DNA from: a virus
Taxonomy: Duplodnaviria; Caudoviricetes
Virus record (IMG/VR): IMGVR_UViG_3300008261_000101
Coordinates: 1-53,861 of that record
DNA length: 53,861 nt
Reading direction: 5' to 3' (one strand)
Made by a program: the position numbers and the translations under genes. Every line of letters begins with the position of its first letter. The first letter of the stretch is position 1. This document shows positions 2,318 through 47,600 of this stretch, piece by piece. Under the pieces are notes generated by a model. It saw only the letters and a list, made by a program, of their open reading frames with translations. It was not told the origin of the DNA and made no database searches.

Positions 2318-2346
2318 TTAATAACATATTACAATTTTAAAGTCAA
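2318..2346 (-). promoter_or_regulatory. sigma70-like early/middle promoter, probably giving a leaderless transcript
   Basis: TTGACT-17 nt-TATTAA with an extended -10 TG; the ATG lies 7 nt after the -10 box. Confidence 0.55.
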
Positions 2347-3174
2347 GTATTTCAACGGGATACCTTGAGAAATTTCCGCAATTGTCCATTCTGTATATGC
2401 GTAATCATTTAACCATTGTTGCCTATCTGGCAAATGAGGATTGTCTACCATTAACAAATGCGGACATGCTACATCAAACGCTAAACTATATGGACTAACA
2501 AACGCAGGTACACCATTGATAATACTGTGTATTCCTGGATTACTACTCCAGCTTACAGTGTATTTTACATTAGCAAAGTTCATATCGAAGTCGTCGTATG
2601 TTCCCGATATCTGCTTTGGTTCTTGCCTATAAACATTCTTGTATTGACGTTCAATGTCTGAAAGTCTGCATCTCGGATGCGGTCGAAATATAATAGGATA
2701 GTTGTAATGCATTTGCAACTGTTCAATTGTATCCATTACCCACTTGCTCATAGGTGGCATGCCTTGCCACTGTAAACTTTTATCATGCTGTCCACAAATT
2801 AAAATATACTCACCATCTTGCTGCCAGGGTTTTAATTCTAATCCTAATTTGCGACTGCGTAGATCATCCATGCCACTAGGCCCAAAATAAGCATTCCTAT
2901 TAATTCCATTTAACCCTATCTTCCATGTTGTTCCGCGCTTAATGCCACCAACTTCCAGCACAACAGTTGGCTTTCCGGTTATTTTGTTTTTTTCCCAAAT
3001 GCCTCTGTTCGGAGCCATTCTGCCATGAAACAATACGCTCCATATAACATCTACATCGCTATCAGTAGTATTATCTGTGCATGTAAATCCTAACGAGTGT
3101 GCACCTTTTCTAAATGCATCAAATACAGGAGACGAGTTAAGTGCTCCATATTGTGTCCATAAACTAAACTTCAT
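2329..3174 (-). CDS. capsule-polysaccharide-biosynthesis (KpsC/KpsS-like, GT-B) protein
   Basis: Motifs ILICGQHDKS, IIFRPHP, VSWSSNPGIHSIINGVP and W..LAY.EWT..EI..G; paralogous to 4027..4956 and 4943..5755. Confidence 0.65.
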   Translation of the reverse strand: MKFSLWTQYGALNSSPVFDAFRKGAHSLGFTCTDNTTDSDVDVIWSVLFHGRMAPNRGIWEKNKITGKPTVVLEVGGIKRGTTWKIGLNGINRNAYFGPSGMDDLRSRKLGLELKPWQQDGEYILICGQHDKSLQWQGMPPMSKWVMDTIEQLQMHYNYPIIFRPHPRCRLSDIERQYKNVYRQEPKQISGTYDDFDMNFANVKYTVSWSSNPGIHSIINGVPAFVSPYSLAFDVACPHLLMVDNPHLPDRQQWLNDYAYTEWTIAEISQGIPLKYLTLKL

Positions 3175-3214: not shown

Positions 3215-4039
3215 GTGGTAAAAATTTCTGTAGTATCGACATTTCATAAACCTGTTCTAGAATTGTATGGACAACGTTTTTTGGATAGCTTTAGTAAAAA
3301 TATAGATACAAAAATCGAACTGTTCTTGTATGCAGAAGATTGCACCCCTGTAGTCAACGACACTCGTGTATTTGTGCTAGACCAGAAAAAAGAACTTCCT
3401 AAACTAGTTGCATTTAAAGAACGATGGAAAAATGTTCCTAAAGCCAACGGAATGTGTCCACCGGAAATTAAAGTGCGTAGACCTAAAGATTGGAATAAAG
3501 AATTTAAATGGGACGCAGTACGATTTGCAAATAAAACTTATGCAGTGTTTGATGCTGCACGTCGTTGTAACAGTGACTGGCTGATTTGGTTAGATGCAGA
3601 TACATATGTACATTCACACGTAACTAACGAAAATCTAGAACAGTTTACTCCTAACAACAGTTGGTTAAGTTATTTGGGTAGAGGCAAAAAATGGCCTGAA
3701 TGTGGATTTTACGGAATCAATTTAAAGAGTGCAGAAGGTCAAGAATTTTTAAAAGAGTTTGAACGGGTATACGAAGATGCCGAAAACGGTATATTTAAAA
3801 TGGAAGAGTGGCATGACAGTTTTGTGTTTTTTGAAGTTTTAAAGAAAATGCAAAAACAATTTCCAAGCTCGTCAGTTTATAATATAAGCGGCAATTTAGT
3901 TAACGGCGAAGGACATCCTATGATTAATAGCGACTTAGGAAAATACTTTGATCACTTAAAAGGTGACAGAAAAACTACCGGAAAAAGTAATAAACCTAAA
4001 GATTTAATTGTAAAAAGAACTGAAAATTATTGGCAATAA
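3215..4039 (+). CDS. GT-A fold glycosyltransferase (nucleotide-diphospho-sugar transferase)
   Basis: DxD motif in LIWLDADT, plus ECGF, EWHDSFVF and YFDHLKG. The start is reassigned to the GTG at 3215 after a GAGGA SD, because the track's 3077 start overlaps the divergent gene. Confidence 0.75.
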   Translation: MVKISVVSTFHKPVLELYGQRFLDSFSKNIDTKIELFLYAEDCTPVVNDTRVFVLDQKKELPKLVAFKERWKNVPKANGMCPPEIKVRRPKDWNKEFKWDAVRFANKTYAVFDAARRCNSDWLIWLDADTYVHSHVTNENLEQFTPNNSWLSYLGRGKKWPECGFYGINLKSAEGQEFLKEFERVYEDAENGIFKMEEWHDSFVFFEVLKKMQKQFPSSSVYNISGNLVNGEGHPMINSDLGKYFDHLKGDRKTTGKSNKPKDLIVKRTENYWQ

Positions 4040-4956
4040 TTTCTCATATGGCGCCAGCAGCTACCGTCTTCTAATTCACTAAACTTCCAGTGAAACATAC
4101 TAATTCGTTCAAGCCAACGTTGCCTGTCAAATGTAACAGGTGATTCTATATATTTAAAATCATCATTAGAAACTTCTTTGCACTGACTTTTTTGTGGATC
4201 AGTTAAAAAACAATTATAACCTTTTATTATCGGACCAACTACTGCACTGCTGTTGTGATTAACAACACACCACGCATTATCTAGATCTTGTTCTAATGGT
4301 TTGTCAAATGCACTTATTGTTACGTTTTTAAAATTTTTAATTTTGGTAAATTTAGGATGCAAATACTTTGATGCGTTTTTGTCTCCTGGATGAGCTCTTA
4401 TTACAATAGGTCTGTCACTGTTATATCTTATTTTTTTAATTGTATCTAACGCCCATTGTTGTACGTCTGTACCTGTCATGCTCCATCCGCCGTTGCGCTG
4501 AAGCATTAGTAAGATATGAGATCCGTGTGTCTTGTTATCTTCTAATACAATTCTTGTATCTTTACTAATCTGCTGCCATCGAGTTGGGTCAATGTCTTGA
4601 TCACAATAGATACCAGTGTTTGGAAAGATTCCATTAAAACTATATCTTAAATAACCATGGGGATTTATTTTATCGTTATATAAAAATAAATTTGCATCTG
4701 CACACACAACATGTTTTCCGCTTGAAACTTGTGTGTGTATTATATTGTTTCTTAATTTTAGATGTGCAGAACTTATATCGTTATGCACCCAGCCTTGTAT
4801 CACTGCAACTTCAGAATCTTCTAGTTGATCCGTATTATTAATTTTTCCAACATCGCCGACTTTATCTACACCTTTGATAAATTTAAAAAGCAAATCGGTT
4901 TTTTGTTTGTTGTTATTTTTTGCCGGAACAGTTTTTAAATAACTAACTACCTTCAT
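4027..4956 (-). CDS. capsule-polysaccharide-biosynthesis (KpsC/KpsS-like) protein
   Basis: Motifs ILLMLQR, IVIRAHP, VVNHNSSAVVGPIIKG and HWKFSELEDG. Confidence 0.65.
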   Translation of the reverse strand: MKVVSYLKTVPAKNNNKQKTDLLFKFIKGVDKVGDVGKINNTDQLEDSEVAVIQGWVHNDISSAHLKLRNNIIHTQVSSGKHVVCADANLFLYNDKINPHGYLRYSFNGIFPNTGIYCDQDIDPTRWQQISKDTRIVLEDNKTHGSHILLMLQRNGGWSMTGTDVQQWALDTIKKIRYNSDRPIVIRAHPGDKNASKYLHPKFTKIKNFKNVTISAFDKPLEQDLDNAWCVVNHNSSAVVGPIIKGYNCFLTDPQKSQCKEVSNDDFKYIESPVTFDRQRWLERISMFHWKFSELEDGSCWRHMRNYCQ

Positions 4957-5755
4957 TTAATATGCTCCATGCAAATCCGTTTAGCATTTCATTAGAAGTA
5001 AACTGGCAATAAGACAAGTGTGCTGCAAATCTGACAGTTTCTTGTTTGGTAGGCAAATATAAATTGTTAATGTCTTTAAGAGCAGTGTTGCACAAAACAG
5101 AAGCAGCATTTGGTGCTAATGCGATAGCCGGTACACTGTAGAGCAACGCTTCTGTAGCTGCAATGCTGTTAAATGTAACCAAACAGTATGCATCATCTAA
5201 CGCATCCCAAATTGTATTAGTTGTAACCCGTTCGGAACGATTTGGTTTGAGTCTTACTTCAATTGGTCGATTGGTATGTGTCTTGATCTCGTCAACTGTT
5301 TCAGCTAACCAAGTATCTAAATCTTTTTCATAAAACTTCATTACTTTGTCAGATGGCGGACATATTAAAATTTTATTGCCTGTTTGACCGTTTCTGTTTT
5401 TGTATTGCCAATTTAATTTTTTTAATCTATCAAGGCCTCTGTCTTTTATTGGTCCTAAATTTTGCAGTGCATTTTTAGTAATACGATGATAGTCCTTTTT
5501 TGTACCGGGCTGAATATATCCAGAGTCGATAGCATAAAAATCTATTTTATTTCTTAAACAATATTTTATGGCTTTTTGACCGCCGCCGCCCAGCCCCCGA
5601 ATTACCAGTGTGTCAGTAGTGCCGTTTTTTAACACAAAGTCACTTATGCTTCCACCAGAACCCATTATAAATGATTGCAAGTAAGGATCGTATTTTAATC
5701 CTTTAGCTTCGTAGTTAAATCCGTCGGATGCAATTGCTGCAATTTTTATTCCCAT
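4943..5755 (-). CDS. capsule-polysaccharide-biosynthesis (KpsC/KpsS-like) protein; may be the C-terminal half of a frameshift fusion with 5893..6639
   Basis: Motifs ILICPPS, IEVRLKP, LVTFNSIAATEALLYSVP and LSYCQFT..EM..G. The frame stays open upstream to 5929. Confidence 0.65.
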   Translation of the reverse strand: MGIKIAAIASDGFNYEAKGLKYDPYLQSFIMGSGGSISDFVLKNGTTDTLVIRGLGGGGQKAIKYCLRNKIDFYAIDSGYIQPGTKKDYHRITKNALQNLGPIKDRGLDRLKKLNWQYKNRNGQTGNKILICPPSDKVMKFYEKDLDTWLAETVDEIKTHTNRPIEVRLKPNRSERVTTNTIWDALDDAYCLVTFNSIAATEALLYSVPAIALAPNAASVLCNTALKDINNLYLPTKQETVRFAAHLSYCQFTSNEMLNGFAWSILNEGS

Positions 5756-5892
5756 GAATGCACTAACTTCTTTCTTTAATTCTGTGTCGTCATAAATCTT
5801 ATGTTCAGGGTCGACTAATGTATTTAAGTATAGCTTTAATATAGATTTTACATTCTTTGTAAACGGTAAATCATCAATTGTTTTGGGTCGTT

Positions 5893-6639
5893 CTAATTCT
5901 CTTGTGAGGTTTTTTTTTGAACTTCTAAATTATTTTGTAAGTATGTTCTTTCAACTTGATACCAATCACTTGAGTATTCGCAACTTTTGTAATCATCAAA
6001 CCAAGGTCCGCCTTCGGTGTAATGAATAAGTTTCGGCTTACCATCTTTGGGTTCGGTGTACCATCCTACTAGCCAATTCCATTCGTGACTGATCTTACCT
6101 ATATGTTTGTCGTGAACCCAACTAAATCTGTGAAAATACGCACCCGTCTTTGCCTCGTTATTAATAAGTGTAGGTGTTAATAGTTTGTTACTAGGATGTT
6201 CGCAGTTGATTAACATCATACTTGACCAGTTTTTTCTTGGATACAACGTTTGTCGCTGCCCGTCCATTTTGGTAACTTCTGTTGGTATATAATTATGTTG
6301 GGCACACATAATAGCATACTTGTCGTCAATCTGATCAAACAACTCTTTTATATCAGCAACTGCTAAAAAGTCGCAATCTATAAACAGCGCCCAACCGGTG
6401 TAGTTATTAAGATATGGAATAAGAAATCTTGTGAACGTAAACTCTGTGCTTGCAAGTTTATCAACTGGACGAGTGTAAATGCCTTGTTTTCTAAGTTTGT
6501 TTTGTTCTATTGGAACGATCTCGACTGGTACAGAAGCGTGTTGTTCGATACTTAACTTTGCAATTTGATATGCAATGTCTTCTCTACTATCCCATCCGAT
6601 ATAGATCTTTAATGGTTTAATCTCGTCGCTCAATGTCAT
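5893..6639 (-). CDS. GT8-like glycosyltransferase
   Basis: Motifs IYIGWDSRE, STEFTFTRF, LFIDCDFL (DxD), YPRKNWSS, WNWLVG and IHYTEGGPW. Confidence 0.8.
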   Translation of the reverse strand: MTLSDEIKPLKIYIGWDSREDIAYQIAKLSIEQHASVPVEIVPIEQNKLRKQGIYTRPVDKLASTEFTFTRFLIPYLNNYTGWALFIDCDFLAVADIKELFDQIDDKYAIMCAQHNYIPTEVTKMDGQRQTLYPRKNWSSMMLINCEHPSNKLLTPTLINNEAKTGAYFHRFSWVHDKHIGKISHEWNWLVGWYTEPKDGKPKLIHYTEGGPWFDDYKSCEYSSDWYQVERTYLQNNLEVQKKTSQEN

Positions 6640-7387
6640 TCTCCGTTAATTCTTTGCCCAGCCACACTTCAATTACTTTGGCAGTTTCGTTTCCGATATT
6701 TATAGCCTTGTGCCAGTATGCAGTCGGTATGTCTATACTGTCTCCTGGTATTAGTGTCTGTTGAGTCTTTCTACCCTGTCTGTCTTCAAGTACCATTACA
6801 ATTACTCCGCTAACAACATGCCAGTGTTCGGATCTTTTAAAATGTCGTTGATCGCTTAATGCTTTTCCTTTTTGAAAACTCAGCTCTTTTACTTGCCATT
6901 CGCCGTTGCTATCAAGTACTTTGTAAGATCCCCAAGATCTTTCAGTCTCTGGTTTTTCCCAGTTTTTTAAAATCCAACTGCTTGAATTCTTCTTATCATT
7001 GCCGCCGACTTCCCAGGCAAATTTAACTCTTGGGTGAGTTCCGTATTTGATAAATTCTGGTATATTTCCAGCATTGCGATCACCGCCGTTGGCAACAATA
7101 ATTTTTGCGTTAGGATTAGAATCTAAGATATACTCGATGCATTTATTACTACTACCTAGTTCGTCATCATCAAAAGATAAAACCAAGTCTACTACCTTTA
7201 GATTACTCACGATGTTTGCTCGTTCTTCAAATGGCATAAACGGTCTGCCTTTTTTGTTAACAAGCCAGCTGTCACTGTTTACACCTACCCATAGTTCATC
7301 GCCGAGCTTTTTAGCTTCGTTAAAATAAGCAATATGTCCGCTGTGGATAGGATCAAATCCTCCGGTTACTAATACTATTGTTTTCAT
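6617..7387 (-). CDS. cytidylyltransferase (HIGH family) fused to a C-terminal cupin (mannose-6-P isomerase type II-like)
   Basis: GGFDPIHSGH, GVNSD, ANGGDR and KKNSSS; C-terminal RSWGSY, LSDQRHFKRSEHW and IEVWLG...ENDIERRD. Confidence 0.85.
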   Translation of the reverse strand: MKTIVLVTGGFDPIHSGHIAYFNEAKKLGDELWVGVNSDSWLVNKKGRPFMPFEERANIVSNLKVVDLVLSFDDDELGSSNKCIEYILDSNPNAKIIVANGGDRNAGNIPEFIKYGTHPRVKFAWEVGGNDKKNSSSWILKNWEKPETERSWGSYKVLDSNGEWQVKELSFQKGKALSDQRHFKRSEHWHVVSGVIVMVLEDRQGRKTQQTLIPGDSIDIPTAYWHKAINIGNETAKVIEVWLGKELTENDIERRD

Positions 7388-7402
7388 AAAGTTATTTAAT
7401 AA

Positions 7403-8023
7403 TTACCAGCCAAAAATATAGTCTTTTCTGATATTGGTAATTTCTTTTGCACCTTGAGTTTTTAAATAAGTACCTGCGCAGTATTCTGTATCAGGATGTT
7501 GTTCAACAATAATTATAGGCTTGTATTTTAAAATAGTTTCGATGCCACCTTTTAATACTTCTAATTCGTATCGTTCACAATCAATTTTAAGAAGTCCAAA
7601 CTTGGGTAAATTCAAGTCATCTAAACGTTTTATGTCGATAGATCCGTAGCCTGTTTCGCTAACATAACTACTACCAGTGTTTTCGGCATCATAAATCATT
7701 TCTACTTTATTGGTTATGTTGCCCAGCGCATGTTTATGTATTTCAATGTTTAACCCTTCAACATTACGCTCTAAACAACTATATACTTGCTCCAATGGCT
7801 CAAATGCAATAACGTGATTAAACACTTTTGTTAAAGGTTTTGACCATAATCCAACATTGGCGCCCACATCAACTACTATATTAAAATCAGTTACATACTT
7901 ATATGCTTCGTCTCTAACATCATCTTGGTATTCAGGAGGTCCACCGTTTTTAACACGCTTGGCAATCAGTCTTTCAAAATGGCTGTCAGTGTCTGGCATC
8001 CAATAGTCGTAAACTTTTTTCAT
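7403..8023 (-). CDS. FkbM-family SAM-dependent methyltransferase
   Basis: VVDVGANVG, AFEP and LLKIDCERYE. The start is reassigned to MKKVYDYW at 8023, an ATGA overlap with the uvsY stop. Confidence 0.85.
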   Translation of the reverse strand: MKKVYDYWMPDTDSHFERLIAKRVKNGGPPEYQDDVRDEAYKYVTDFNIVVDVGANVGLWSKPLTKVFNHVIAFEPLEQVYSCLERNVEGLNIEIHKHALGNITNKVEMIYDAENTGSSYVSETGYGSIDIKRLDDLNLPKFGLLKIDCERYELEVLKGGIETILKYKPIIIVEQHPDTEYCAGTYLKTQGAKEITNIRKDYIFGW

Positions 8024-8475
8024 ATCGAAGCGTCCTCCATACCGGCAACTCGTAACTTTACGATGTTGGTTAATTGCCATTGTTTTTGATCTAATGCTTT
8101 AAGAACGCCTAGCCATTTATTGCGCACTAATGCAAATTCATTAATAATTTTTTCATAGTCGACTACATCTGCTTCGCCGTCTACATATTTTTCAACATCG
8201 CGACTGCTTAATGCACGTTGATAATTTTCAAGATATTTCTTAAAAAAGCTGCTGCGCAATCTACGTAATTCAATGTTCAAATACTCGAGAATAGCTTCTA
8301 ACTCTTGCAGTTGATTAAATCGGTGTTCTACGATACCAGGCATATTAGCGGCAGCTTTTTCAATACTGCCGCTAATTTGTACTTCGTTACGAGCTGACAC
8401 AAGTTCGTCTTGAAAGTATTGTATTGCTTCCGGAATTTGAGAGATATCTCTTGATACTCTACTATACCATCCCAT
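8020..8475 (-). CDS. uvsY: UvsY recombination mediator
   Basis: 151-aa helical protein near uvsX, with ALSSRDVEKYVDGEAD and KALDQKQWQLTNIVKLRVAG. Confidence 0.8.
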   Translation of the reverse strand: MGWYSRVSRDISQIPEAIQYFQDELVSARNEVQISGSIEKAAANMPGIVEHRFNQLQELEAILEYLNIELRRLRSSFFKKYLENYQRALSSRDVEKYVDGEADVVDYEKIINEFALVRNKWLGVLKALDQKQWQLTNIVKLRVAGMEDASI

Positions 8476-33154: not shown

Positions 33155-36100
33155 TTATTTATCGAGTACTTTCTGAAGCATTGATCTCAACTCGTCAATT
33201 TGTCTTTGCTGTTCTTTAAACGCTTCGATAAATGCACCAGCAAAAGCACCGTAGTTAACTGACTTAATACCGTCCTCGCCTTCATGCACAACTTCTGGAA
33301 AATATTTCTCAACTTCTTGTGCAATAACACCCATATGTCTACGTTCGGTGTCTTCTTTATCGGTTCTTGTAAATGTCACACCACGTATGCTTAATATCTT
33401 GGTTAGCGGATCTGCAATAACTTCAATGTTATCTTTAACTCTAACGTCAGAGAAAGCACAAACATCACCAGTTGCAGTAAAAGTTCCATCGCCAGTTAAT
33501 ACTGCGGCTTGTGTAGTTCCGCCGTACCATCTGAAGTATGTAGTAGCACTAGCAGTTGGAACACTGTGCCACAATGTACTGCTTCCGATACCTATTGCAT
33601 AATCCACTGCCGCAGCACCTATAGCTGGATATAATAATAGTTTAGTACCGGCGCTTCTTGTGGTAAATGCAGGTAAGTCAACACCGTTGACGTTCCAGTC
33701 AATTCTGTTACCGCTTGCACCATTTAGATAAAGTTGACTGCTGCCTGCTGTAGCATTATTTGCACCAGATAGTATCAATGTTTGTGTACTTGGATTTATA
33801 CTGAAGTTAGTGTTAACAAGACCGGTTTGTGCACCTGTGGTGTTTGCAACAAACGTAATGTATCTAGTTGCGTTTGTCGAGTCAGTTGCAATGCTTTGTA
33901 GTGTATCAGTGTTTGTGTCAGTGTCACTCCACGGAACGTTTACTACCAAGTTGTCACTGCCGTCAACTTGAACTGCGTATGTTCTACTTGCTGTTGCACT
34001 AACTGCGTTTGATGCAACTGTTTGTGTAGTAGCATTTACGTTTGCATTAAATGTTGTGCCACTTAACGTTAATCCTGTTCCTGCTGTATAAGTTGTATTT
34101 GTGTCAACTACAGTTTCAGTTGCAGTTGTTAATCCAGTTACGTGACCGTATGTATCAAGTGTAACAGATTGGATATATGTTCTGCCAGTATTAGATAACG
34201 AATTTTGACCACTTGTATTTGAGTGACTGATTGTTATTCGATCTGCAACTGTATCAGCTACTAGATCGATACCGTTTGTGCTATCTACTGCTCCTGCTCT
34301 AATATATAGCGTATCATTGTTACTGTCTGCAACAACTGTATCAATTGCGGTACCATCAGATTGTTCAAGTGTGATGTTTTTAAATATATTCTGCGAGCTG
34401 CCGAGATCAGTGTTTGTAATACGAATAGCGTCACTTGTTGCAGCCACGTCGATATTAATACCAGATCCGCTTACTAGCGTTAGTGTGTCTCCAGTAGTAT
34501 CTGCAACAGCACTGCCTGTTTCTGCCCAGGTATATCCGCTGTCGGTATCAGTTACTGTAACAGTACCAAAGTCTGAACTTTGGCTAGTTAAGTAAGTTGC
34601 AGTTGTAACCGCAGTTACGTGACCAAAACCATCAAGAGTGATTGCAGCAATACCTGCACTACCTTGAGCGCCAGTTAATGTGCTGGTGTCTGCGTGTGCA
34701 ATTGTAGCTGCTGTACCTTCACCTGCTGTTGCACTGATAGTAAGCCCGCTTGATGTTGTTTCTGCACCAGGTGTGCCAGCAGCTACAGTTGCAACATAGT
34801 TACCAGTGGTGTCAGTCCCGAGCGCAACACTGTCGGCTGCAATTGTTGCTGTCAGTGTAACGGCTGCACTTCCGTCAATGCTTACGCTACCACTTAAATC
34901 GCCACCTAGTGTTATAGTTCTAGCTGTTGCCCACTTGGTTGCTGTTGCTGCGTTACCAGAAACGCTAATTGCATAAGTGCCTGTTAGTCTGTCGCTAGGC
35001 ACTGTACCACTGGTTAGCTGGCTAGCATTAAGAGTTGTTAATCCGCTACCATTACCGTTAAATATACCATTGGAGTATACGTTTCCGGCAACACCTAAAC
35101 CTCCGCCGATGATAACAGCACCGGTTGTATGGCTAGATGAAGCAGTTGTGTCGCTAAATGTCTTAGCTCCTGCCATAGTCTGAGTACCGCCTAGTCTTGC
35201 TCCGTCTACAGTACCACTTGATAGGTTTGAAGCATTTAAGGTTGTTAATCCGCTACCGTTGCCAGTGATTGTACCGCCAAGGTGAATGTTTCCAGCAACA
35301 CCTAGTCCTCCGCCGATGATAACAGCACCGGTTATAGTACTAGATGAAGCAGTAGTATCACTAAATGTCTTAACTCCTGCCATAGTTTGGTTTCCGCCTA
35401 AGCGAGCACCTGCTACTGTACCACTGGTTAATTCAGTCGCATTAAGAGCAGTTAAGTTTGTACCCACTCCGGAGAAGCCACTGGTTCCACCAAATGTTAA
35501 TGTTGTTGTACTAGCTGTTAAAGTAACGCCCGGAATTCGGAAGTTGGTTATACTACCGTTACCTAGTGTAATTTCGTTGCTGGTTGTACTTGTGCTTGCG
35601 TCTGCATTATAACCAATAACAATGTTATTACTGCCTAATGCAATGCTATCGCCAGCATTACTACCGATAGCAACGTTTTGTTTACCAGTGGTAATTGCAA
35701 GTGCCTGATATCCAACTGCAACGTTGTTTGTAGCTGTATCGCTTACAGTGCCGGTTGTGTTTTGCATCGATTGAGCACCAACAGCAACGTTGTATCCAGC
35801 ATTTGCTGCGGCTTGTGCTAGTGCATCATTTCCTATTGCAGTATTATGTGTTGAGCTAGTAACAAGAGCCAATGCTGTATTACCAAGTGCAACGTTATCT
35901 GTGCCTGTAACAACAGCACCCATTGCACCGACACCGACTACTAGATTGTCAGTACCGGTACTTATAGCTTGTCCACCTGCTATTGCAAGATTGGTTGCAC
36001 TATTTCCACCGCCACGACCGACTTTGTGGCTGTTTACAGTTATATCACTGGTAAATGTTTTTCCTGCTTGCGATGTAGGCAAATAGGAATCACTTATAGT

Positions 36101-39100
36101 ACCAGAACTTATATTTGAAGCATTTAGAGTTGTTAGTCCGCTACCATTACCAGTGAATGTACCACCAGAGTGAACATTTCCAGCAATACCGACACCGCCG
36201 TCAACAACTAATGCACCTGTTGTAGTGCTGCTCGAAGCAGTTGTTGCATCTATGTTTACATCTGGTTTAAGAGCAATAGCATTGCTACCAGTTGTACTTG
36301 TGAAAACAATAAAGTCATTTGATCCGTCTGTGATACTTAACCCGTCTACTAGGTTTGTAGGGAATACAATTTCGTTTTCGGTAGTTGCACCCTTAAAGTT
36401 TACGCTTTCACTTAGATACAAGTCTTTCCATGCAAGTGAACTTGTACCCAAGTCTCGAGCATCATTTGTACTTGGTTCTAAGTTGCTGTCCATACGTCCT
36501 ACAAATGTTATAGTGTCGGAAGTGGCATTACCTAGATTGATATCTCCATTTAAATCTGTTTGTCCTGTTACAGTTAGTGTACCTGCAACAGAAGTATTAC
36601 CACTTGCTACTACTACACGAAACTTTTCAGATCCGCTGGCGCCGATATCAAAGTTGGTACCATCAAAGCGGAAGTTTGCATCGTCTTCTACTATGCCACC
36701 AGTTCCTGCAATAACAATACGGTTATTGGTCAAGTCACTTATAGTTGCACTGGCTAGGGTTGATTCACCGGTAACACCCAATGTTCCTGCAACGGAAGTA
36801 TTGCCACTTGACGCAGTTACAGTAAATTTATTTGTATTAACTGAAAAATCGCCGCCGATGTCTCCTAGTCCGGAAACATCTAACGTACCAATGGTTGCTG
36901 TTCCGTTGACATTTATGCTTGTAGCTGTTAGATTCCCTTCAAACGCATCTGCAACAACAGTGCCGAGACTAAACGATGCATCGGCGACATTGATGTTGCC
37001 GGTTATTGCAGGATCGTATTCATCAAAGAACTTAAACTTTTGATCTGTAACATCAAAGAAGAATCCTAGATGAGTGTATCCTACACCCGATGTCCCTGTG
37101 TTTCTGTTTCCTGTAACACCAACATCAACGTTTACCGGCGAAGCACTACCTGACCAGATATCGTTTAGTGTGTGTCCTGTTGTCGATACCCACACAACAC
37201 TGATACCGTCTGCTAGTGCTACAGGGTCTGTATCTACATCAATGTCAGTTGCTTCTGTTGTAGAAAAGTTATCCAATGACCATTCAAACGTGTCAACTCC
37301 TCCAGTACCGCCGCCGACACTGTCTATTCTTACATAGAATGTTTGTGTTGTTGTACCCTGGTAGTGTCCTACTAGTGTAGCATCATCTAACCCTGTACCG
37401 GTGAATGTTGTTCCATCGTTTCCTATTGTGTCTCCAGAATTTAAATATATAAAACTAGAGTCAACTTCTAAGTTGTTCAATTTAACACTAGATTGACTAC
37501 CTAGTACTATTAAGTCTCCTGCAACTGTAACATCAGCATCGAAGTATGCACCTTCGGTGACTCTAAATTTTTCTACTGTGTGACTTCTTAGTTCGATGTA
37601 AATTGATCCTGTGCTTGCATTACTGGTTAAACAGATACCGATATCAACTGGGAAGTTAGGATAATCGGGTGCAGTTTGCACTAGTGTTCCTGGAGCATCA
37701 AACCCTAAGTGAATCTTTTGTCCAGATGTTAAGTTACTGGTATCGATACCGTCGATATATCCACTAACAATAACATAACCTTCTGCTCCGTTTGCAATAT
37801 TATGTCCTGCTAATCCTATAACTTCTATTTTGTTAAGATCGCTAGCATCGGCTAATGCAACTGTTGGATAGCGTCCAAAAACAGCATCTCCTGCAATATA
37901 AACACCTGTTACATAAACAGGTTGACCTTTATTGATAGTTGCGCCTGAACTGTTGCGGCAACGAATAAATTCACGTTCACCTAATGTAATGTCAAAGTTA
38001 CTATTATTGCTAAACAATACCAATGACTCAAAATCGCTGTCATAGTATAGTCTGCCTTCTTGGTATGACGGACGACTTGAATATGCAGTCGGTGAAAAGT
38101 CTATTCGGCCCAGGTTAGCTTCAGTTACGTTAACTGTACCATTGACGTATAAGTTTTCTGCAATACCAACTCCGCCGTCGACAACTAATGCACCTGATGT
38201 ATAACCAGTAGATCCTGTGGTTGAATTAAATGTGACATTACCATCAACTGTAAGAGCATCATCTACTTTTACATCTCCTGTAAACGTTGCCAGACCACTG
38301 GTGTCTATTGTTAGACGTGTAGTTGATGTTTGCTCAATAGCACTGGACGATCCAACTTCACCTGTTTTTACAACAAAGTTGCCGCCGGTGGCATTACCTG
38401 TTCCTAGTCCGGCTTGTATAGTAAATGCGCCGCCGGCTATGTTTGTTCCTATACCGCTTTCACCTTTGAGTGTTGCATTTGCAGTACTGCTACTTGCTTC
38501 TGCACTACCGAAAATAACATTTCTGTTTCTTATTAACATTGTGTTATCTTTAGTAAGTGTTCCTGCAATAGGCGATGACGAACTTACAGTAACGTTTGCA
38601 TTGGTTTTTATAGTAAAGCTAGTAGCGTTAAATGTTGCGCCTAGTACTGGCCATTGTCCATCTAAGTTAGAAACAGTGCTACTAGCTATGTTAATGGTGT
38701 CGCCTGCTCTGATGCCTAATGTAAACGGAGTATAGGTAAATGTTAATGTTGTACTTGACGATATTGTTCCAGTTGTTTCTGCACTCAAATAAACATAATC
38801 AGTTGTAACACCGGAAACTGTTGTATTTGCAGGAATACTAGCAGAACCAGTTACTAACATGCCTGCTAGTATTCCACTAGTACTTGCCATTGGAACTTCT
38901 TTGTCACCATTTCCAGTAATACCGTCTGTTGCTGCGGTAAAAGATTCTAAGTTTACTGTTACTGTTGTTGAGGAGGTTGCATCGTAGTTGTCAATGAAAC
39001 TTGTTATATTTCTTGTAGCAGTACTCTTACCTATTTTTACAGTTTCGGCAGCAGATCCTAATTCTAGTGTAGTAACATTATCATTGTATACCAAACCAAT

Positions 39101-42100
39101 TCCTGTGCTTGTTGAAGAAAGTCTTGCTGATCCTACGTCTAGCCCTTCTGCTAGATCTAGTGCAGTACTCCATTCAGGTGTTGTACCATTAGATTTCAAG
39201 AAGTTGTTTGCTCTACCAATGTTTAATGTGTTTAGTGTACTTGTAGATTGTGCATATATGATATCACCTTGTGAATATGCTGATAGGTTAGTTCCGCCCT
39301 TGTTTACAGGAACATTAGAAGTTAAGTTAGAAGGATCCAAGAAATAAGAACTGTCAAGACTGTCTAGTGTTCCTGCATCTACTACTCCGTCCTTGATAAA
39401 CACTTGTCCTGACGCACCGGTGTCTACATCAAATTGACTTTGTAAGAATCTAGCAGTACCAAGTGTTGAATATAGTTCGCCCGGATCGTAATCAACGTTA
39501 GCAATACCAATACTTACGTCTCCGTAGTATTCTCCCGATATGTTAGAACCTGTAAGTGTTATAGGGTTATCGGTTGTATTTGCTTCTATCAAATTCTGCA
39601 CTACAACTCGATAACTGCTATCTCCGTACAATACAGTATCAGAGTTTGCTGTTCCCGAACCTGCTAATCTAGTAGGAGATACAATACCTGAAATAATGTT
39701 ACTTGCATCTATGTTTGTAACTGCTAAACTATTCCAGTTTGCTTTTAATCTACTGCTTGTATTAACAACGCCGTTTACTTGTACGTTTTGTAGTATTACA
39801 ATTGCATGGCCAACACCTGTTGATGTAATATTCTTTGCACCTACAACTAACCCGTTAATACTAGCAAGTGCGTCACTTCTTAGTTCGTGTAGTGTAAAGC
39901 TGTTGGTTGTTACAGATCCAATAAAGAATCTACTGCCGTCGACTATTTCAGTAGAAGCTATATCAGGCAATGCAGAAACTGAACTTCCATCATTTTCGAT
40001 GCTGATTTTTATAGCGTCTCCTGTTGCAAATCCGTGATTAACTACAGTAATACTATTGTCAGCAATGTTAACTACATATCTAGTTAAGTTGTGATTGTTG
40101 TTTGCTGGAGTACTTAAAAATTCTATTTTATTAACTAAACTAAAATCTTCATACAGCTCAATTGTATTAGCAGTAATACTTTTTGCATAATAAACTTCGC
40201 CATTTATCATGCCTCCTATAGCAACGTTTCCTAGAGTATTATATGATACTGGATCGCCGTTTGAATATCCATGGTTTGTTATAGTAATTCTATAATTTAC
40301 ATAATCAACGTTACCGCCAGCGCCTACATCTCCGGCTAAGAAATTTTGACTAATTGAATCTTCTAAATCGATGATTTGCTTTGTAAGAGGAGCATCGTTG
40401 TCTTCGACAAAATCTACAGATGACGTACTTGCAACAAAAAGCTCTCCACCTATGATGTTAACATAAGCACGCTTTTCTATTGCAGTGATTTCAATTTCAA
40501 AATCGTGTCCAAGACCTACGCCGTCAAAGTTCGGATTGACTGAAAGCAGATCACCAACAGCATATCCTGTGCCACCTCTTCGAATGTCAACATCTACGAT
40601 ACAGGCATCAGTAACTGTTAAGTCAGCAAGTGCACCGGTTCCTACTCCGGTTACAGAAGTCAACGGAATCATTTCCCAAACATATGTACCTGTTGCAGGA
40701 GCATAGTCGAATCCTGGTGTAAAGTTTGTATTGTCGACGTTTGTACACACACCGTATCTTGTTTCTGTAACAGCACCTTGTGCATTTCCGTCGGCACTGG
40801 TTACAAGAGTATAAGCATATCCTGTGACTGCTTTAATTGATTCATTTGCTCCAGTGTTTGCAATGGTAAATGTAGTGTTTGTAGGTATTGACAGCACTAT
40901 ACCGTTTTCATCGTATAGGTGGTCGCTAGCATCTACTCTAACACTATTGCCAACTCTTAGATTATGATTTGTCAAAGTTGTGATTGTTGCAACGTTGCTG
41001 GATCTTGAAACAAAGGTAATCGCTGCACTAGTAAAATTATAATCGTCGTCATTTGACAATATCAAATACTGGCTACTATTAGAACTTTTTAAGAAGAAGT
41101 TATCTATAATTGCACTGCTAGTACCTTTGCTTGACGGTTTTATACCAGAATCAACGTTGTTAACATACAAGTTAGGAGCCGATACTCCTGTATCCCACGG
41201 GTCGCCGGTGCTGTCGTCAGTTGAATCCCATTCGCCCTCGACAGAAGCAACAAGTAAGTTTAGTGATGCACCGTAATTGCCCTTTGCATATCCTACGGCA
41301 CCAGCAATACCGGGTTGACTGATTTCGTCGCCGTCGTTTACTGTTATACCAGATGGCAATGTAAGTTCTACCTGTTCGTATTCTTCAGTTGCAATGTCCC
41401 CAGCTTTTAAGTCTACTGCTGGAATTTCGTCAACTTGTAATAGTCTAGATAGATATCCTTGTGTTGTTGTACTAGTAAACTGTCTTGTTGCTGGAATCAA
41501 TTCAGGATTTAATTGACCGTTAGTATTAAGTTGTACAATTGCACCAGGAACAGCAGCCGTTGATACTGCCTTGTCAATAAATCCACCTAGTCTGTTTGAT
41601 AAGAAACTTCTAATAGCCAACTGTGTCGACAAGCGTGAATTGCTAGAACCGCCTAGTTCGTCGTCACCTAAGTTAACATTTGTTGAAATTTCTTCAATTG
41701 CAATATCTGATAATGTTAGTCGTAGTGCATCGAGCTCGTCAACTTGTACTTTATTTCTAAATGTGATATTACCGGTTCTGTTGTATGCTGTAATAAAAGT
41801 GCCAACTTTAAAGTCGCCAAGTTCGTTTGTACCTGATGTATAAACACGACCAGGTAGTTCTTCATATTGTTCGTATTCTTCTCTAGTTCTTCCGCCGTTT
41901 TGTGGTAAAGCGTTATAGTCTACACCAGATCCTGAATATTCCCATGTGTGTGACGAACTGTTAACAATACTAGGTCTGTGGAACCAACACTGCTTTTCTG
42001 GTAAGTTTGCTAGATTTGTTAAGGATGTCCCAACAACAGTACTTTGTATTGTAAATGTTGCAGTACCGAGACCTGCATAGTTTGAGACTTCGTTGATTCC

Positions 42101-44639: not shown

Positions 44640-47600
44640 TTAGAATGTACCACCGTCTATTGTATCAGTCCAGACCGGAGTAGAATCAATGTTACTTGTG
44701 ACAGTTAGTATTTGATATGAAGTAGTAATGTCGCTTGCACCAGCAGCGGCAGTTACTTGTATCGGATTAGCAGTATCGCCATATAGTATTCCGTTTTCAG
44801 TAAATGTACTAGCACCTGTACCGCCGTATTGTACTGCTAAGTCATTATTAGTTAGTATTAATGATCCGTTAACAGTTAAATCTTCGTCAACTGTTAAGTC
44901 TTCGTTAACTGTTACACTTTGATCAAATGTAGTTAGTCCGCCGGTTTTACCTATATTAATTACAGTTGCATTTCCAAATGCATTAATTGTAGTTGGCGTT
45001 ACATTTAGTAAATTAAATGTACCAGCACTAGTTGTAATATCGCCGCCGTTTACAGCTAAGTCGCCAGTTATAGTTGCAACAGTTGAGCCTAGTTTAAACT
45101 TTTCTGTTAACGTTCCGTTTGTCATTGTTTTAAATGACATCTCAAAATATTCAGCCAAGTTAGTTACATTTGTTACAACTACATCTAAAATGCCGCCTAT
45201 TGTGAATATACTGGTGTCAGTTTCTAATTCAAACTTTAGTCCAGTACCGCTGTTTACAGTAGGCGTGCCAGACACACTATGATGTGCAAGTATAATTGGA
45301 TATACAATTGCATCGGCACTACTGTCTGGAGCATTTGATATGAATTTAATTTCCTCAGGAGATTCAATTGTGCTAGCTTTGATGATAATCTTGTCACTTG
45401 CATAATTGGTTAGCTGTAGTACTCCACTAGTGTTACCGCCAATGTATTGATTAACGTGTAGTTCTTTACCGATGCCAACTCCGCCAGTAACAGTTAGTGC
45501 ACCAGTATTATAAGCCGAACTTGCTGTAGTATTTTCTATTCTTACATCAACAGTATCGTCAATTCTTAAACGTGCTGTACTTAAATTCATACGCTCTATA
45601 CCATCGGTATAGAACATCAATTCGTTTTCGTTTGCAGCCGGAGAACTTTCAGCAATTATGTATGTATTGCCGTCGACATCTCGCACGCCGCCGAGACTAT
45701 TCCACGCAATACCGTCGTATCCTTCAAATTGTCCTACGTTGGTATTGAAACGAACTTGACCAGTAACAGAAGTCGGTCTTTCGGCTGTTGTACCAACTGG
45801 TAGTTGAATGCTAGCTACACTATCAAATATTGTTAGTTCGTTATTAACTGTTAACGTACCAGTTGCTGCGCCTATGTTTAAAGTAGTTGCTGCACCAAAT
45901 GCATTGACAGTAGTAGCAGTTGTATTTAATATGTTAAATGTACCAGCAGTTGTAGTAATGTCGCCACCGTTTACAGATAAGTCTCCGGTTACAGTTGCAT
46001 CTTGTACCACTGACAAGTTTGCCCCTACATTTAAATTCTTTTCAATACCTACTCCGCCCTGAACAATTACTGCACCGGTGTCTTTATCAGAACTATCAGT
46101 TTCGTTAAGTACTATTATATTAGGTACAGTGCCAAACTTGATCGATTCACTACTGTTAGTTGTATCAATTGCTACATAAGAATTAGTTGATTCTTTAATT
46201 TCAAATGCAACTGCAATGTTATCAGGAATGTTAAATTCTGCATCACCGGTAACAACCAGTGAGTCTACTGCGGCATTACCTAGGTCTATACTACCGTTAA
46301 TTGTTAAGTCGCCGTTAACACTTAAATTACCGCCAATTCCGACACCACCGGTAACAACCAATGCACCAGTTGAGTAAGTTGAAGAATTTGTTGTATTAAG
46401 TATATTGACAATAGGAGTTTCACCGAACGTAACATTTTCGGTACCGTTAACTGTGTCAATTGTAAAATAGTTAAATGATCCTTGATAGATACTAAACACG
46501 TCGGATGTATTGTCAGGAACACTGACATTTGCAATTCCTGTAATAGTTACGTCATCTTGAAATAAAGAAGTTCCTATTACTTCAAGGGTGTTATTAACAG
46601 TTGTTGTACCTATTAATGCACCGATATTAATGTCAGTAGCACCGCCGAACGCATTAACAGTTTGTGCGTTGTCGTTAATCAGGTTAAACGTTACTGCGGT
46701 ACTAGAAAGGTCTCCACCGTTAACTTGGATGTCAGTTTCAAATATTACATCATCTTCGACTGTGCCGCCTGTAATTTTATTCAAGTATCTATTTTCAACA
46801 TAGGAAATTACAGCAGTTTGTGTAGGAACAGTATAACTATCGGGTATACCCAAGCTCGATGTTAAGTCACCGTTTTCGCTTACTTCTCTTAATTCAACGC
46901 CAACTGGTATACCATCTCTTCTAAATGGTCCAATTGACGTAATACCACTTAAACTAATTTCGTTTGCATTAAGCGTAATTGCACCTGTTAGTGCGTTAAC
47001 TCTAAAGAAGTTACCAACTTTAAAGTTACCAATTTGATCGACTACACCTCCGGCAAACACTTTACCGTTGTTAGTTTCAACAAATTCATTTGCTGCTATA
47101 GGTACGCCACCGAAGAACGGTAACGCATTATATGTAATGCCTGCACCTACATATTCAAACGCATGTCCGGAAGTAGATATAGTACTCACGTTTTGTAAAC
47201 TTGATAGTGTGTTATCTAGTACAAATGTAACACCAGGGAACAATGATATAGTTGCAGTACCACCATATTCTTGATTTAACATTATAATTGTTTCATCAAC
47301 AATATCATCTGTGTTGGTTAAGATCAATTCTCGTTTTGCATTAATAGTAACATCAGCTAGTGTGCTGTAGCTGTGATTTACTTCTGTAGGTAATGACGTA
47401 TTTCCATTTTTAATAACTTCTGCTATTTTTTCTACTAGAATCCATATGTAGTTTGCTGAAATTGAACTCCCTGCAGAACTACCGATTACTTGAGTTTCTG
47501 TAACATCTTCGCTTGGAGTAATTGTATTGTTTAATGCTATTTCTTTTAATACAGTTGCAAGATGTTTATAAGAAAATTCCGAAACACCTGACTGATCGGC

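Follow-up and report, generated by a model that had tools for sequence, protein, structure and literature searches.

The window analysed here, the whole stretch of 53.9 kb, is DNA of a freshwater T4-like phage, and the locus of interest lies on its minus strand. The upstream ORF (5893..6639, minus strand) encodes, in the zero frame, a GT8 (GT-A) glycosyltransferase of 248 aa that would be the product of unslipped expression. This ORF matches the Pfam family Glyco_transf_8 (PF01501) with 32 bits at a cut-off of 24.3, as well as PHROG 28018 (4e-50), and the D-C-D motif (FIDCDF), which is the DxD motif of GT8, is invariant among the fused homologues. The ORF covers the whole GT8 domain and runs on into the first helix of an interdomain linker, where it ends. 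Its 3' end reads GTT CAA AAA AAA ACC TCA CAA GAG AAT TAG, with the stop five codons past a run of nine A's (5910..5918, minus strand); in the zero frame this candidate slip site is read as CAA AAA AAA A, and it contains A_AAA_AAA. The frame downstream is related to that of GT8 by -1, which is equivalent to the addition of one A in the mRNA, and is open from stop to stop between 5929 and 4943, that is, for 328 codons beginning FRSSKKNLTRELERPK..., the first ATG, GTG or TTG in it being the ATG at 5755. Any shift must happen within the frame-overlap window (5896..5929, minus strand) that is bounded by the -1-frame stop TAA (5930-5932) upstream and the zero-frame stop TAG (5893-5895) downstream. 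From the run onwards, the -1 frame consists of a 52-codon linker (5756..5911, minus strand; NLTRELERPK...EVSAF), helical in the fold model, and a C-terminal domain that was identified as GT-B-like by fold search (4943..5755, minus strand; 270 codons from a conserved Met-Gly-Ile). With one A added, the sequence reads ...QKKNLTRELERP..., for which the predicted junction is ...EVQKK-NLTRELERPK... and the predicted length of the fusion is 243 + 322 = 565 residues. The whole putative recoded gene (4943..6639, minus strand) would accordingly be a GT8-linker-GT-B fusion that matches the 550-573-aa single ORF of in-frame relatives, and the 137 nt at 5756-5892, formerly read as an intergenic gap, would belong to it. 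A previous sequence-only reading of this DNA had already described the A9 position, the end of the GT8 ORF, the open -1 frame, the 137-nt gap, the 52-codon linker and the total of 565 aa, and all of these are indeed present. The A9 is the sole homopolymer of at least nine nucleotides in the 53.9 kb, at a first-order Markov expectation of 4.0 +/- 2.1. A lone A9 is unremarkable by itself; it is the conservation of this run that is far beyond chance.

At the sequence level, the C-terminal domain belongs to no PHROG family and in Pfam has just a sub-threshold match to DUF6716, and searching its profile against solved structures yielded chance-level matches only (E of at least 0.04). The AlphaFold model of the domain (pLDDT 81.8) has KpsC (8fux_B) as its top Foldseek match (E 3.2e-5, probability 1.00), and VIA-align superimposes model residues 63-320 on KpsC with a Z of 11.7 and an rmsd of 5.0 over 228 aligned residues, compared to Z 9.9 for WbbB and at most 9.0 for generic GT-B rows. 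Thus, the best structural match of the domain is the modified GT-B fold of the retaining beta-Kdo transferases, KpsC/KpsS (GT107), WbbB (GT99) and KrkA (GT140). These enzymes are defined by two motifs, QXXXD, which carries the nucleophilic Asp, and the CMP-binding (K/R)XHP (PMC12887879). Unlike them, the C-terminal domain has no conserved Q-x-x-x-D, as judged by sequence position only in an alignment of 24 sequences, in which the strand expected to bear this motif reads ILICPPS(D/E/A/L)KVM; (K/R)XHP is absent there as well, its place being taken by an invariant R-L-K-P in which Lys replaces His. The chemistry of the domain, or else its donor, probably differs from that of the known Kdo transferases. 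The designation 'KpsS-like' in the sequence-only reading is hence apt for the fold and inapt for the motifs. The paralogues in the same cluster carry RAHP (4027-4956) and RPHP (2329-3174) at the (K/R)XHP place; the protein encoded at 1111-2310 was considered as a further paralogue and turned out to be unrelated. A KdsB-like CMP-sugar synthetase is found in 3 of 5 related records.

Is the stretch between the two enzymes coding, and if so, could a ribosome get there without recoding? Among the five haplotypes of the window clade, the variable columns of the linker are distributed over the three codon positions of the -1 frame as 9/45, 4/46 and 28/46, so that third positions make up 28 of the 41 variable columns, and stops abound in both other frames. 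Across shifted relatives, the dN/dS of the linker is 0.04-0.22 (10 pairs; 2 further pairs are saturated), and the range for 7 in-frame pairs is 0.06-0.61. Even over the first 20 codons past the zero-frame stop, the -1 frame has a pN/pS of 0.29 and no stops. In the other frames, pN/pS is 0.81 and 1.03, and the stop-containing codons number 13 and 14. In the model of a fused homologue, the helices of the linker have a pLDDT of 85-93. The substitution patterns show that the linker is coding and that purifying selection acts on it as read in this frame; the linker is conserved, contrary to the condition under which the fusion was to be abandoned according to the sequence-only reading. Nevertheless, the part of the -1 frame that precedes the run is devoid of ATG, GTG and TTG in all 18 shifted haplotypes. 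The starts internal to the linker are not conserved and lie at least 20 codons past the run, 7 of the 18 haplotypes have none, and inspection of the alignment revealed no conserved non-canonical start among the first linker codons.

These findings make it doubtful that we are dealing with two independent genes, free of recoding, of which the second uses the ATG at 5755 or a non-canonical codon in the linker as its start, the linker itself being a remnant of a fusion or conserved for some other reason. A remnant would not retain such low dN/dS values, free of stops, over distances of dS 0.4 to over 2; selection acts on the first 20 linker codons even though no canonical start precedes them in any of the 18 haplotypes, and the linker offers no conserved non-canonical one. 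This scenario does account well for the second half of the locus: the ATG of Met-Gly-Ile is invariant, the KpsC-modelled domain starts about at that Met, public gene callers predict proteins of 270 aa, and the two enzymes are separate genes in Pelagibacter phage Mosig, whose homologue begins near the position of this ATG, and in Caulobacter phages, where their order is reversed. Furthermore, many relatives, in-frame and shifted alike, have purine-rich, SD-like stretches ahead of the ATG. The window clade, however, has no GGAG-like motif at -17..-5 before the ATG, in line with the earlier remark that a clear SD is missing here, and independent genes give no reason why a run of A's should be retained at the nucleotide level, when in-frame relatives are free to vary at this very site. 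Given the conserved ATG and the SD-like stretches in many relatives, some of the C-terminal domain may be made alone, from the ATG at 5755, in addition to the fusion; and given that Mosig and the Caulobacter phages encode two separate enzymes, fusion is not obligatory for function. A scan of 4800-7600 detected neither a sigma-70-like promoter on the coding strand nor a terminator-like site between the two parts. The TAAATA at 5821-5826, which had been suggested as a potential driver of independent expression, reads CTTAAATA, which differs from the T4 late promoter consensus, TATAAATA, and lies inside the conserved codons Y-L-N-T; it may act as a weak late promoter, and as such is unnecessary for explaining the locus.

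The most informative evidence comes from the relatives. Classification of the best 80 of 538 related IMG/VR loci gave 45 in-frame fusions, 35 loci with the -1 layout and none with +1, and proteins of 550-573 aa account for 47 of the best 120 database proteins. Every one of the 16 distinct shifted junction haplotypes, which reach relatives of about 60% protein identity, has a long A-run in the frame overlap, A9 in 14 and A10 in 2, and the zero-frame stop is located 1-5 codons past it; in three lineages (L045, L040 and L052), the overlap window extends beyond the run by just 0-2 codons at either end. The shifted state is kept across clades separated by dS of 0.4 to over 2. By contrast, most in-frame relatives lack a long A-run at the junction, and the site varies freely in them, with the exception of several in-frame lineages (L081, L089-L091) that have A10 at the same site. 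On the tree, 5 changes of state (at least 4-5) are required, with gains and losses not told apart. The lack of +1 loci is weak evidence on directionality because the shifted state may have arisen once. Thus, the homologues display what the sequence-only reading had proposed to look for, namely conservation of the A-run and of the -1 split in shifted relatives alongside common natural fusions. A nucleotide search of named phages gave as its sole match 124 nt of Pelagibacter phage Mosig, and a search of 185,579 species genomes for cellular homologues gave just 3 loci, each of them on a MAG contig, which makes this an essentially viral family.

Homopolymers are classic sites of indel errors and of replication slippage, and the possibility has to be considered that the true run is an A10 that was miscalled or that the population is a mixture of A9 and A10, the locus being an ON/OFF contingency locus. 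The existence of relatives (L081, L089-L091) in which an A10 occupies this site in frame and the requirement for at least 4-5 state switches on the tree are both compatible with such a DNA-level explanation. We consider it very improbable all the same, given that the same layout is found in 35 IMG/VR contigs and in 2 JGI metagenome contigs, the latter being the only loci that a JGI metagenome scan for close relatives recovered, both with the A10 haplotype of the L017 clade. In that clade, a C-to-A substitution, and no indel, extended the run to A10, and elsewhere in the same data set A10 runs were called in frame. At the contig level, frame state and run length are uniform within every group of identical or near-identical contigs, including groups of identical contigs that stem from different metagenomes. 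All sampled words of 5500-6300 are present in 17 DNA runs from 16 studies, where words may miss the run itself and some of the runs may be the source; a DNA contig that extends across the run has A9 and no indel, possibly again from the source sample. The contigs of two RNA-library runs cover 5612-5828 and 6111-6260, outside the run, and one raw-read run contained 0 reads of this phage. The stability of the shifted state and its constancy among near-identical contigs disfavour both assembly error and ON/OFF variation: no contig has a run length that would restore the frame, and the phase variation that had been offered as one option finds no counterpart in run lengths or frames.

Taken together, the selection on the linker, its inaccessibility from any canonical start, the natural fusions and the conserved A-run and layout bear out the original proposal of an A9-mediated -1 fusion of two glycosyltransferases; that a slip on the A-run fuses GT8 to the downstream glycosyltransferase in a predicted protein of 565 aa is strongly supported by this comparative evidence. 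At which step, then, would the slip occur? Our preferred reading, to which we assign a probability of roughly one half, is that transcriptional slippage on the conserved A9 yields, from one gene, both GT8 alone and the bifunctional fusion of 565 aa. Runs of more than seven A's (An, n>7) count among the transcriptional realignment sites (PMC3711429), and bacterial RNA polymerase would be made to slip by a run of nine, as is established (PMC3711429, PMC4256274); a transcriptional component is therefore hard to avoid.

The same protein would result from a -1 shift of the ribosome because the heptamer A_AAA_AAA is perfect and in phase. Tandem Lys-tRNAs would slip on it and then read AAC CTC, and programmed frameshifting of this kind as the main route to the same fusion is possible, if somewhat unlikely. 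All 18 shifted haplotypes offer an in-phase X_XXY_YYZ heptamer, even L045, where the phase is different; in 17 of the 18, the phase is C-AA|AAA|AAA|A, with a perfect A_AAA_AAA. A_AAA_AAA, A_AAA_AAG and A_AAA_AAC are known frameshift heptamers (PMC3711429). The zero-frame stop 1-5 codons past the run is as expected for such a shift, and the selection on the linker and the missing starts fit a ribosomal mechanism and transcriptional slippage equally well. The elements that usually stimulate ribosomal shifting are another matter. Minimum free energies computed for 60 nt downstream and 50 nt upstream of the run have z-scores of -1.2 to +1.8 against shuffled sequences, and the 18 shifted haplotypes have neither a stable or common local secondary structure within these stretches nor a clear SD-like stimulator upstream. 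In addition, no lineage has a run of 7 or 8, or an A_AAA_AAG with a run of 6, although ribosomal shifting would tolerate these, and an A9 would cause slippage of the RNA polymerase in any case. The absence of a detectable stimulatory structure, together with the fact that every run is at least nine long, leads us to favour transcriptional slippage over the ribosomal mechanism. The latter argument is weaker than it looks because coding constrains two of the nine A's in part: one is the second position of Gln, the other belongs to the Lys/Asn codon that comes next in the -1 frame.

Transcriptional slippage would work in the following manner. Most expression would end five codons past the run and give the stand-alone GT8 enzyme of 248 aa. 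T4-like phages use the RNA polymerase of their host, and in some transcripts this enzyme would slip on the nine A's and add one A; normal translation of these A10 mRNAs would pass through the helical linker of 52 residues into the KpsC-like GT-B domain. The outcome would be a pool of free GT8 and GT8-fusion at a ratio set by the run, which is the option of 'two products in a set ratio' from the sequence-only reading, and the one favoured here. Both products probably act in a phage-encoded pathway for an acidic glycan. We infer the placement of slippage in transcription rather than in the ribosome, the product ratio and the roles of the enzymes from the features of the locus and its relatives.

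A more speculative extension, which we regard as rather unlikely and mention for its implications, is that the A-run is an evolvable dial of stoichiometry, repeated flips between states, at least 4-5 on the tree, serving to retune the ratio of the two glycosyl-transfer activities and, through it, the length or composition of the acidic glycan as hosts or defences change. Under this hypothesis, an out-of-frame A9 would give mostly free GT8 and a minority of the fusion, an in-frame A10 mostly the fusion and a minority of free GT8, and a run-less gene the fusion only; if so, a virus would possess, through recoding, its own counterpart to phase variation. The finding suggests that the ratio of free GT8 to the GT8-KpsC-like fusion matters for the glycan that these phages build. 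To our knowledge, the recoded genes described in tailed phages are for the most part those of tail-assembly chaperones, along with a small number of structural genes; the slip site predicted here is conserved and lies in an auxiliary gene for glycan synthesis, carried by uncultured T4-like phages that are abundant in freshwater and in the sea. Slippage on poly-A is a known kind of recoding, and our literature searches retrieved general papers on slippage and no description of a slip site in this gene family, so that its occurrence there appears to be unpublished. For annotation, the result would correct a systematic error, the 'gap' and two 'genes' becoming one recoded gene in 35 of the best 80 loci. 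Furthermore, the in-frame, out-of-frame and run-less versions of the enzyme constitute a natural comparison set that could be used to measure the handling of A9 and A10 by bacterial RNA polymerase or by ribosomes in vivo.

How does this locus compare with known systems? The in-frame GT8-linker-GT-B proteins of related aquatic phages share with the 565-aa fusion the domains and their order, a homologous helical linker and the length; one of these (P0003) is an in-frame fusion of 564 aa that is 69% identical over the C-terminal part. Unlike the window, they are encoded by a single ORF, in most cases without a long A-run at the junction. Among recoded genes, E. coli dnaX, with its A_AAA_AAG, and IS elements such as IS1 are -1 ribosomal frameshift cassettes. 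Such A-rich cassettes combine an in-phase heptamer, an overlapping -1 ORF that lacks a start and a fusion made at a set ratio, and the present locus has, or is predicted to have, the same attributes; phages commonly use recoding of this type, as in the lambda G/GT tail chaperone (PMC5009743, PMC3711429). The cassettes usually carry an SD-like element, a downstream structure or both, and tolerate runs of 6-7, whereas neither element is detected here and the run is at least nine; the class of gene, a glycosyltransferase, is different too.

In dnaX of Thermus thermophilus and in other dnaX genes with A9-A10, about 9-10 A's give rise to a mixed pool of mRNAs and to two products with a common N-terminus, and the run is conserved among homologues, as it is here (PMC5009743, PMC3711429). 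In Thermus dnaX, the zero frame encodes the long product and slippage leads to the short one, whereas in the window slippage would be needed for the long product, a polarity that recurs in two-ORF dnaX genes (PMC3711429). In tssM1 of Citrobacter rodentium and tssM3 of Yersinia pseudotuberculosis, as in the window, a stop just past a poly-A tract splits a multidomain gene; the tssM case involves an A11 in a bacterial secretion gene and is experimentally proven, whereas ours involves A9 or A10 in a phage glycosyltransferase, in many diverged lineages, and is predicted from sequence comparison. The C. rodentium gene, interrupted at A11, is rescued by transcriptional slippage to about 20-25%, so that it yields a full-length form next to a truncated one, and a tssM homologue with an in-frame poly-A tract yields a truncated form by the same slippage (PMC4256274). 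The same two states recur in the phage family described here, as lineages with an out-of-frame A9 and lineages with an in-frame A10.

The sequence-only reading had described a GT8 gene joined to a second glycosyltransferase gene by a slip at a run of adenines, and every feature that it listed is present in the sequence. The upstream ORF (5893-6639, minus strand; 248 codons), which passes the Pfam cut-off for GT8, ends GTT CAA AAA AAA ACC TCA CAA GAG AAT TAG, with the A9 run at 5910-5918 near its 3' end. In the -1 frame, a stop-to-stop reading of 328 codons extends from 5929 to 4943 on the same strand, beginning FRSSKKNLTRELERPK, and its earliest ATG, GTG or TTG is the ATG at 5755, which leaves an apparent gap of 137 nt (5756-5892) between the GT8 ORF and the ATG-started downstream ORF. 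One added A in the run, or a -1 slip, would give ...EVQKK NLTRELERP..., that is, a fusion of 243 + 322 = 565 residues in which a linker of 52 codons, from N to F, connects the two domains. By itself, the A9 run proves nothing: it is the only homopolymer of at least 9 nt in the 53.9-kb record, no more than composition allows (expectation 4.0 +/- 2.1). Nevertheless, selection on the linker, the absence of starts, the existence of fused relatives and the conservation of the run all support the view that a slip at the A-run makes the fusion, to which we assign a probability of about 0.8.

The comparison with homologues, proposed as a check of whether they are split or natural fusions, is informative in this respect. 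The 328-residue frame has 806 relatives, and 47 of the best 120 are proteins of 550-573 residues that consist of an N-terminal GT8, a homologous linker and a C-terminal copy of this domain; the remainder include 270-residue calls resembling that of the window and some calls of ~340 residues that start in the -1 frame upstream of S-K-K-K, which represent the shifted layout as a gene caller reads it. Among the best 80 of 538 IMG/VR relatives, GT8 comes first in every locus, as in the window; in 45 the two domains are in frame, and in 35, plus the window, the second domain is at -1 and the run is present. The second domain was found in +1 in none of these 80 or the window, which is weak evidence because the shifted state may have a single origin. 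Judging from these sequences, the fusion is the normal form of the family, which is essentially viral, with three loci in the species-genome collection, each on MAG contigs.

The gap itself behaves as coding sequence. Ten IMG/VR contigs (86-98% identity) align with the window over the junction with zero gaps; the five distinct haplotypes that they represent vary at 9/45, 4/46 and 28/46 of the gap columns at -1-frame codon positions 1, 2 and 3, the remaining two frames being full of stops. For the linker, the conservation of which had been in question, 10 shifted-lineage pairs with dS 0.44-2.2 show Nei-Gojobori dN/dS of 0.04-0.22 (two further deep shifted pairs were saturated), and 7 pairs of single-ORF lineages show 0.06-0.61. 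Over the first 20 codons past the zero-frame stop, five independent pairs yield pN/pS of 0.29 and no stops in the -1 frame; the other two frames give 0.81 and 1.03 and contain stops at 13 and 14 codons. All this indicates that 5756-5892 is translated in the -1 frame. Between the opening of that frame and the run, no ATG, GTG or TTG occurs in any of the 18 shifted haplotypes; starts within the linker are scattered, lie at least 20 codons past the run and are missing altogether from 7 of the 18, the window included; and no conserved non-canonical start is seen in the junction alignment of the relatives. Given this distribution of starts, the linker can be reached only by a change of frame.

The run is the constant element of the junction. 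The 36 shifted sequences, with domains ~60-70% identical to those of the window, collapse into 16 distinct junction haplotypes, all of which keep a run within the frame overlap (A9 in 14, A10 in two), as the sequence-only reading would predict, and the zero frame terminates 1-5 codons past it. The opening of the -1 frame coincides with the run in one locus (L045) and lies one codon ahead of it in two others (L040, L052), so that the shift is possible in the run alone. In the L017 clade, A10 arose via a C-to-A substitution, with no indel, and two more metagenome contigs carry this haplotype again. The majority of the 27 in-frame haplotypes have no long run at the junction site. Four loci (L081, L089-L091) have an in-frame A10 there, ~165 nt before the Met-Gly-Ile codon and encoding S-K-K-K; by analogy, slippage should yield a minority truncated GT8-only product in these, a mirror image of the window. 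On the maximum-likelihood tree of the two domains, the frame state changes at least five times, four of the changes being forced by well-supported branches, and shifted clades are deep; no group of identical contigs drawn from several samples combines both frame states. At the level of assembled contigs, such constancy speaks against miscalled homopolymers and against a rapid form of the proposed ON/OFF variation of the glycan.

So by which route could the frame be changed? The two known routes, transcriptional and ribosomal, lead to an identical protein. Slippage of bacterial RNA polymerase on runs of this length is documented (PMC3711429, PMC5009743, PMC4256274), and the run is shorter than nine in no shifted lineage, although a heptamer would suffice for the ribosome; as a caveat, coding partly constrains two of the nine positions. 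No stable or shared RNA structure was detected in the 60 nt that follow the run or the 50 nt that precede it (z -1.2 to +1.8). Taken together, these points favour transcriptional slippage, to which we would give an even chance; -1 ribosomal frameshifting, with which the perfect A_AAA_AAA phase of the run agrees, seems rather unlikely. A 217-nt metatranscriptome contig (run X18) matches window 5612-5828 with no mismatches, from the linker end through the ATG at 5755 into the C-domain, and is compatible with co-transcription, although DNA carry-over may also account for it. A 151-nt contig from another RNA library (X20) is identical to the window save for one additional T on the plus strand at 6230-6235, an extra A in mRNA sense, in an A6 stretch of the GT8 gene (depth 2 of 5). 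Error, strain variation and slippage could each account for it, and the coverage is too slight for an interpretation. Both contigs end short of the A9 run, and the one raw-read data set examined contained no reads from this phage.

Initiation at the conserved Met-Gly-Ile ATG is possible as an additional route to the C-domain. As originally remarked of the ATG at 5755, a clear Shine-Dalgarno sequence is lacking: SD-like purine stretches are absent ahead of it in the window clade, and the shifted lineages show them no more often than the in-frame ones do. The TAAATA suggested as a driver of independent expression (CTTAAATA) is located within conserved codons, and neither a sigma-70-like promoter on the coding strand nor a terminator-like site was found between the two parts. 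The exact TATAAATA, which we take to be the T4 late-promoter consensus, occurs once in the 53.9-kb record (shuffles expect 7.3 +/- 2.5), at 6697-6704 on the minus strand, 58 nt upstream of the GT8 start, in the last part of the ORF before it; this site is a candidate late promoter for the recoded gene.

The AlphaFold model of the 328-residue frame (pLDDT 81.8) best matches retaining beta-Kdo transferases, with KpsC found by Foldseek (E 3.2e-5) and by VIA-align (Z 11.7, rmsd 5.0 over 228 residues, model residues 63-320), followed by WbbB (9.9) and generic GT-B folds (<=9.0); the downstream domain is thus predicted to begin at the Met. The initial assignment as KpsS-like holds for the fold but not for the motifs that define the beta-Kdo transferase family, QXXXD and (K/R)XHP, as described in PMC12887879: the C-domain family has no conserved QXXXD, the strand being ILICPPSxKVM, and an invariant RLKP takes the place of (K/R)XHP. 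In the model of an in-frame fused homologue (P0003; pLDDT 84), the linker is folded with confidence into three helices, and the slip site falls within the first long helix, which starts in the GT8 tail.

The record represents part of a large T4-like myophage (CheckV completeness 15), and the DNA runs that contain this stretch come from lake, river and other freshwater metagenomes. Encoded in it are UvsX, UvsY, a gp32-like SSB, sheath and tube proteins and the large terminase, along with two adjoining giant ORFs that resemble tail fibres (3793 and 2532 residues; 33155-44536 and 44640-52238, minus strand). Two paralogues of the C-domain lie on the minus strand, at 4027-4956 (hhalign 95.6%; RAHP at the (K/R)XHP place), overlapping the 3' end of the recoded gene by 14 nt, and at 2329-3174 (91.8%; RPHP); the ORF at 1111-2310, considered as a further paralogue, is unrelated. 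Directly upstream of GT8, the ORF at 6617-7387 (minus strand) combines a cytidylyltransferase-like domain (heptose 1-phosphate adenylyltransferase-like by PHROG) with a cupin/mannose-6-phosphate-isomerase C-terminal domain and may supply sugar nucleotides to the cluster; an FkbM-type methyltransferase (7403-8080) adjoins it. A KdsB-like CMP-sugar synthetase (PF02348, 73-90 bits), not found in the window fragment, is present in three of five related records (G001, G002 and G004, with loci L021, L088 and L058), ~10 kb from the glycosyltransferase locus in that of L021. The sizes of related fragments (93-156 kb at CheckV 26-44% completeness) suggest genomes of ~350 kb.

The nearest named relative for both genes is Pelagibacter phage Mosig, in which, unlike the window with its -1 relation, the genes are separate and share 20 nt in a +1 relation (L001 4141-4160); the second has an ordinary ATG, the overlap lacks a homopolymer, and the two enzymes are here genuinely split. 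CbK-like Caulobacter phages have the two genes side by side in reversed order. These arrangements imply that the two enzymes belong together yet can work as separate chains. A literature search on slippage in this glycosyltransferase family found nothing, and, to our knowledge, such recoding in this gene family, and conservation of this breadth in uncultured aquatic phages, are undescribed. The kind of recoding is already known from documented analogues, Thermus-type dnaX and, the closest, tssM1 of Citrobacter rodentium, in which, as reported in PMC4256274, a premature stop after A11 is rescued at ~20-25% by transcriptional slippage, both products are needed, and the Yersinia homologue has the tract in frame.
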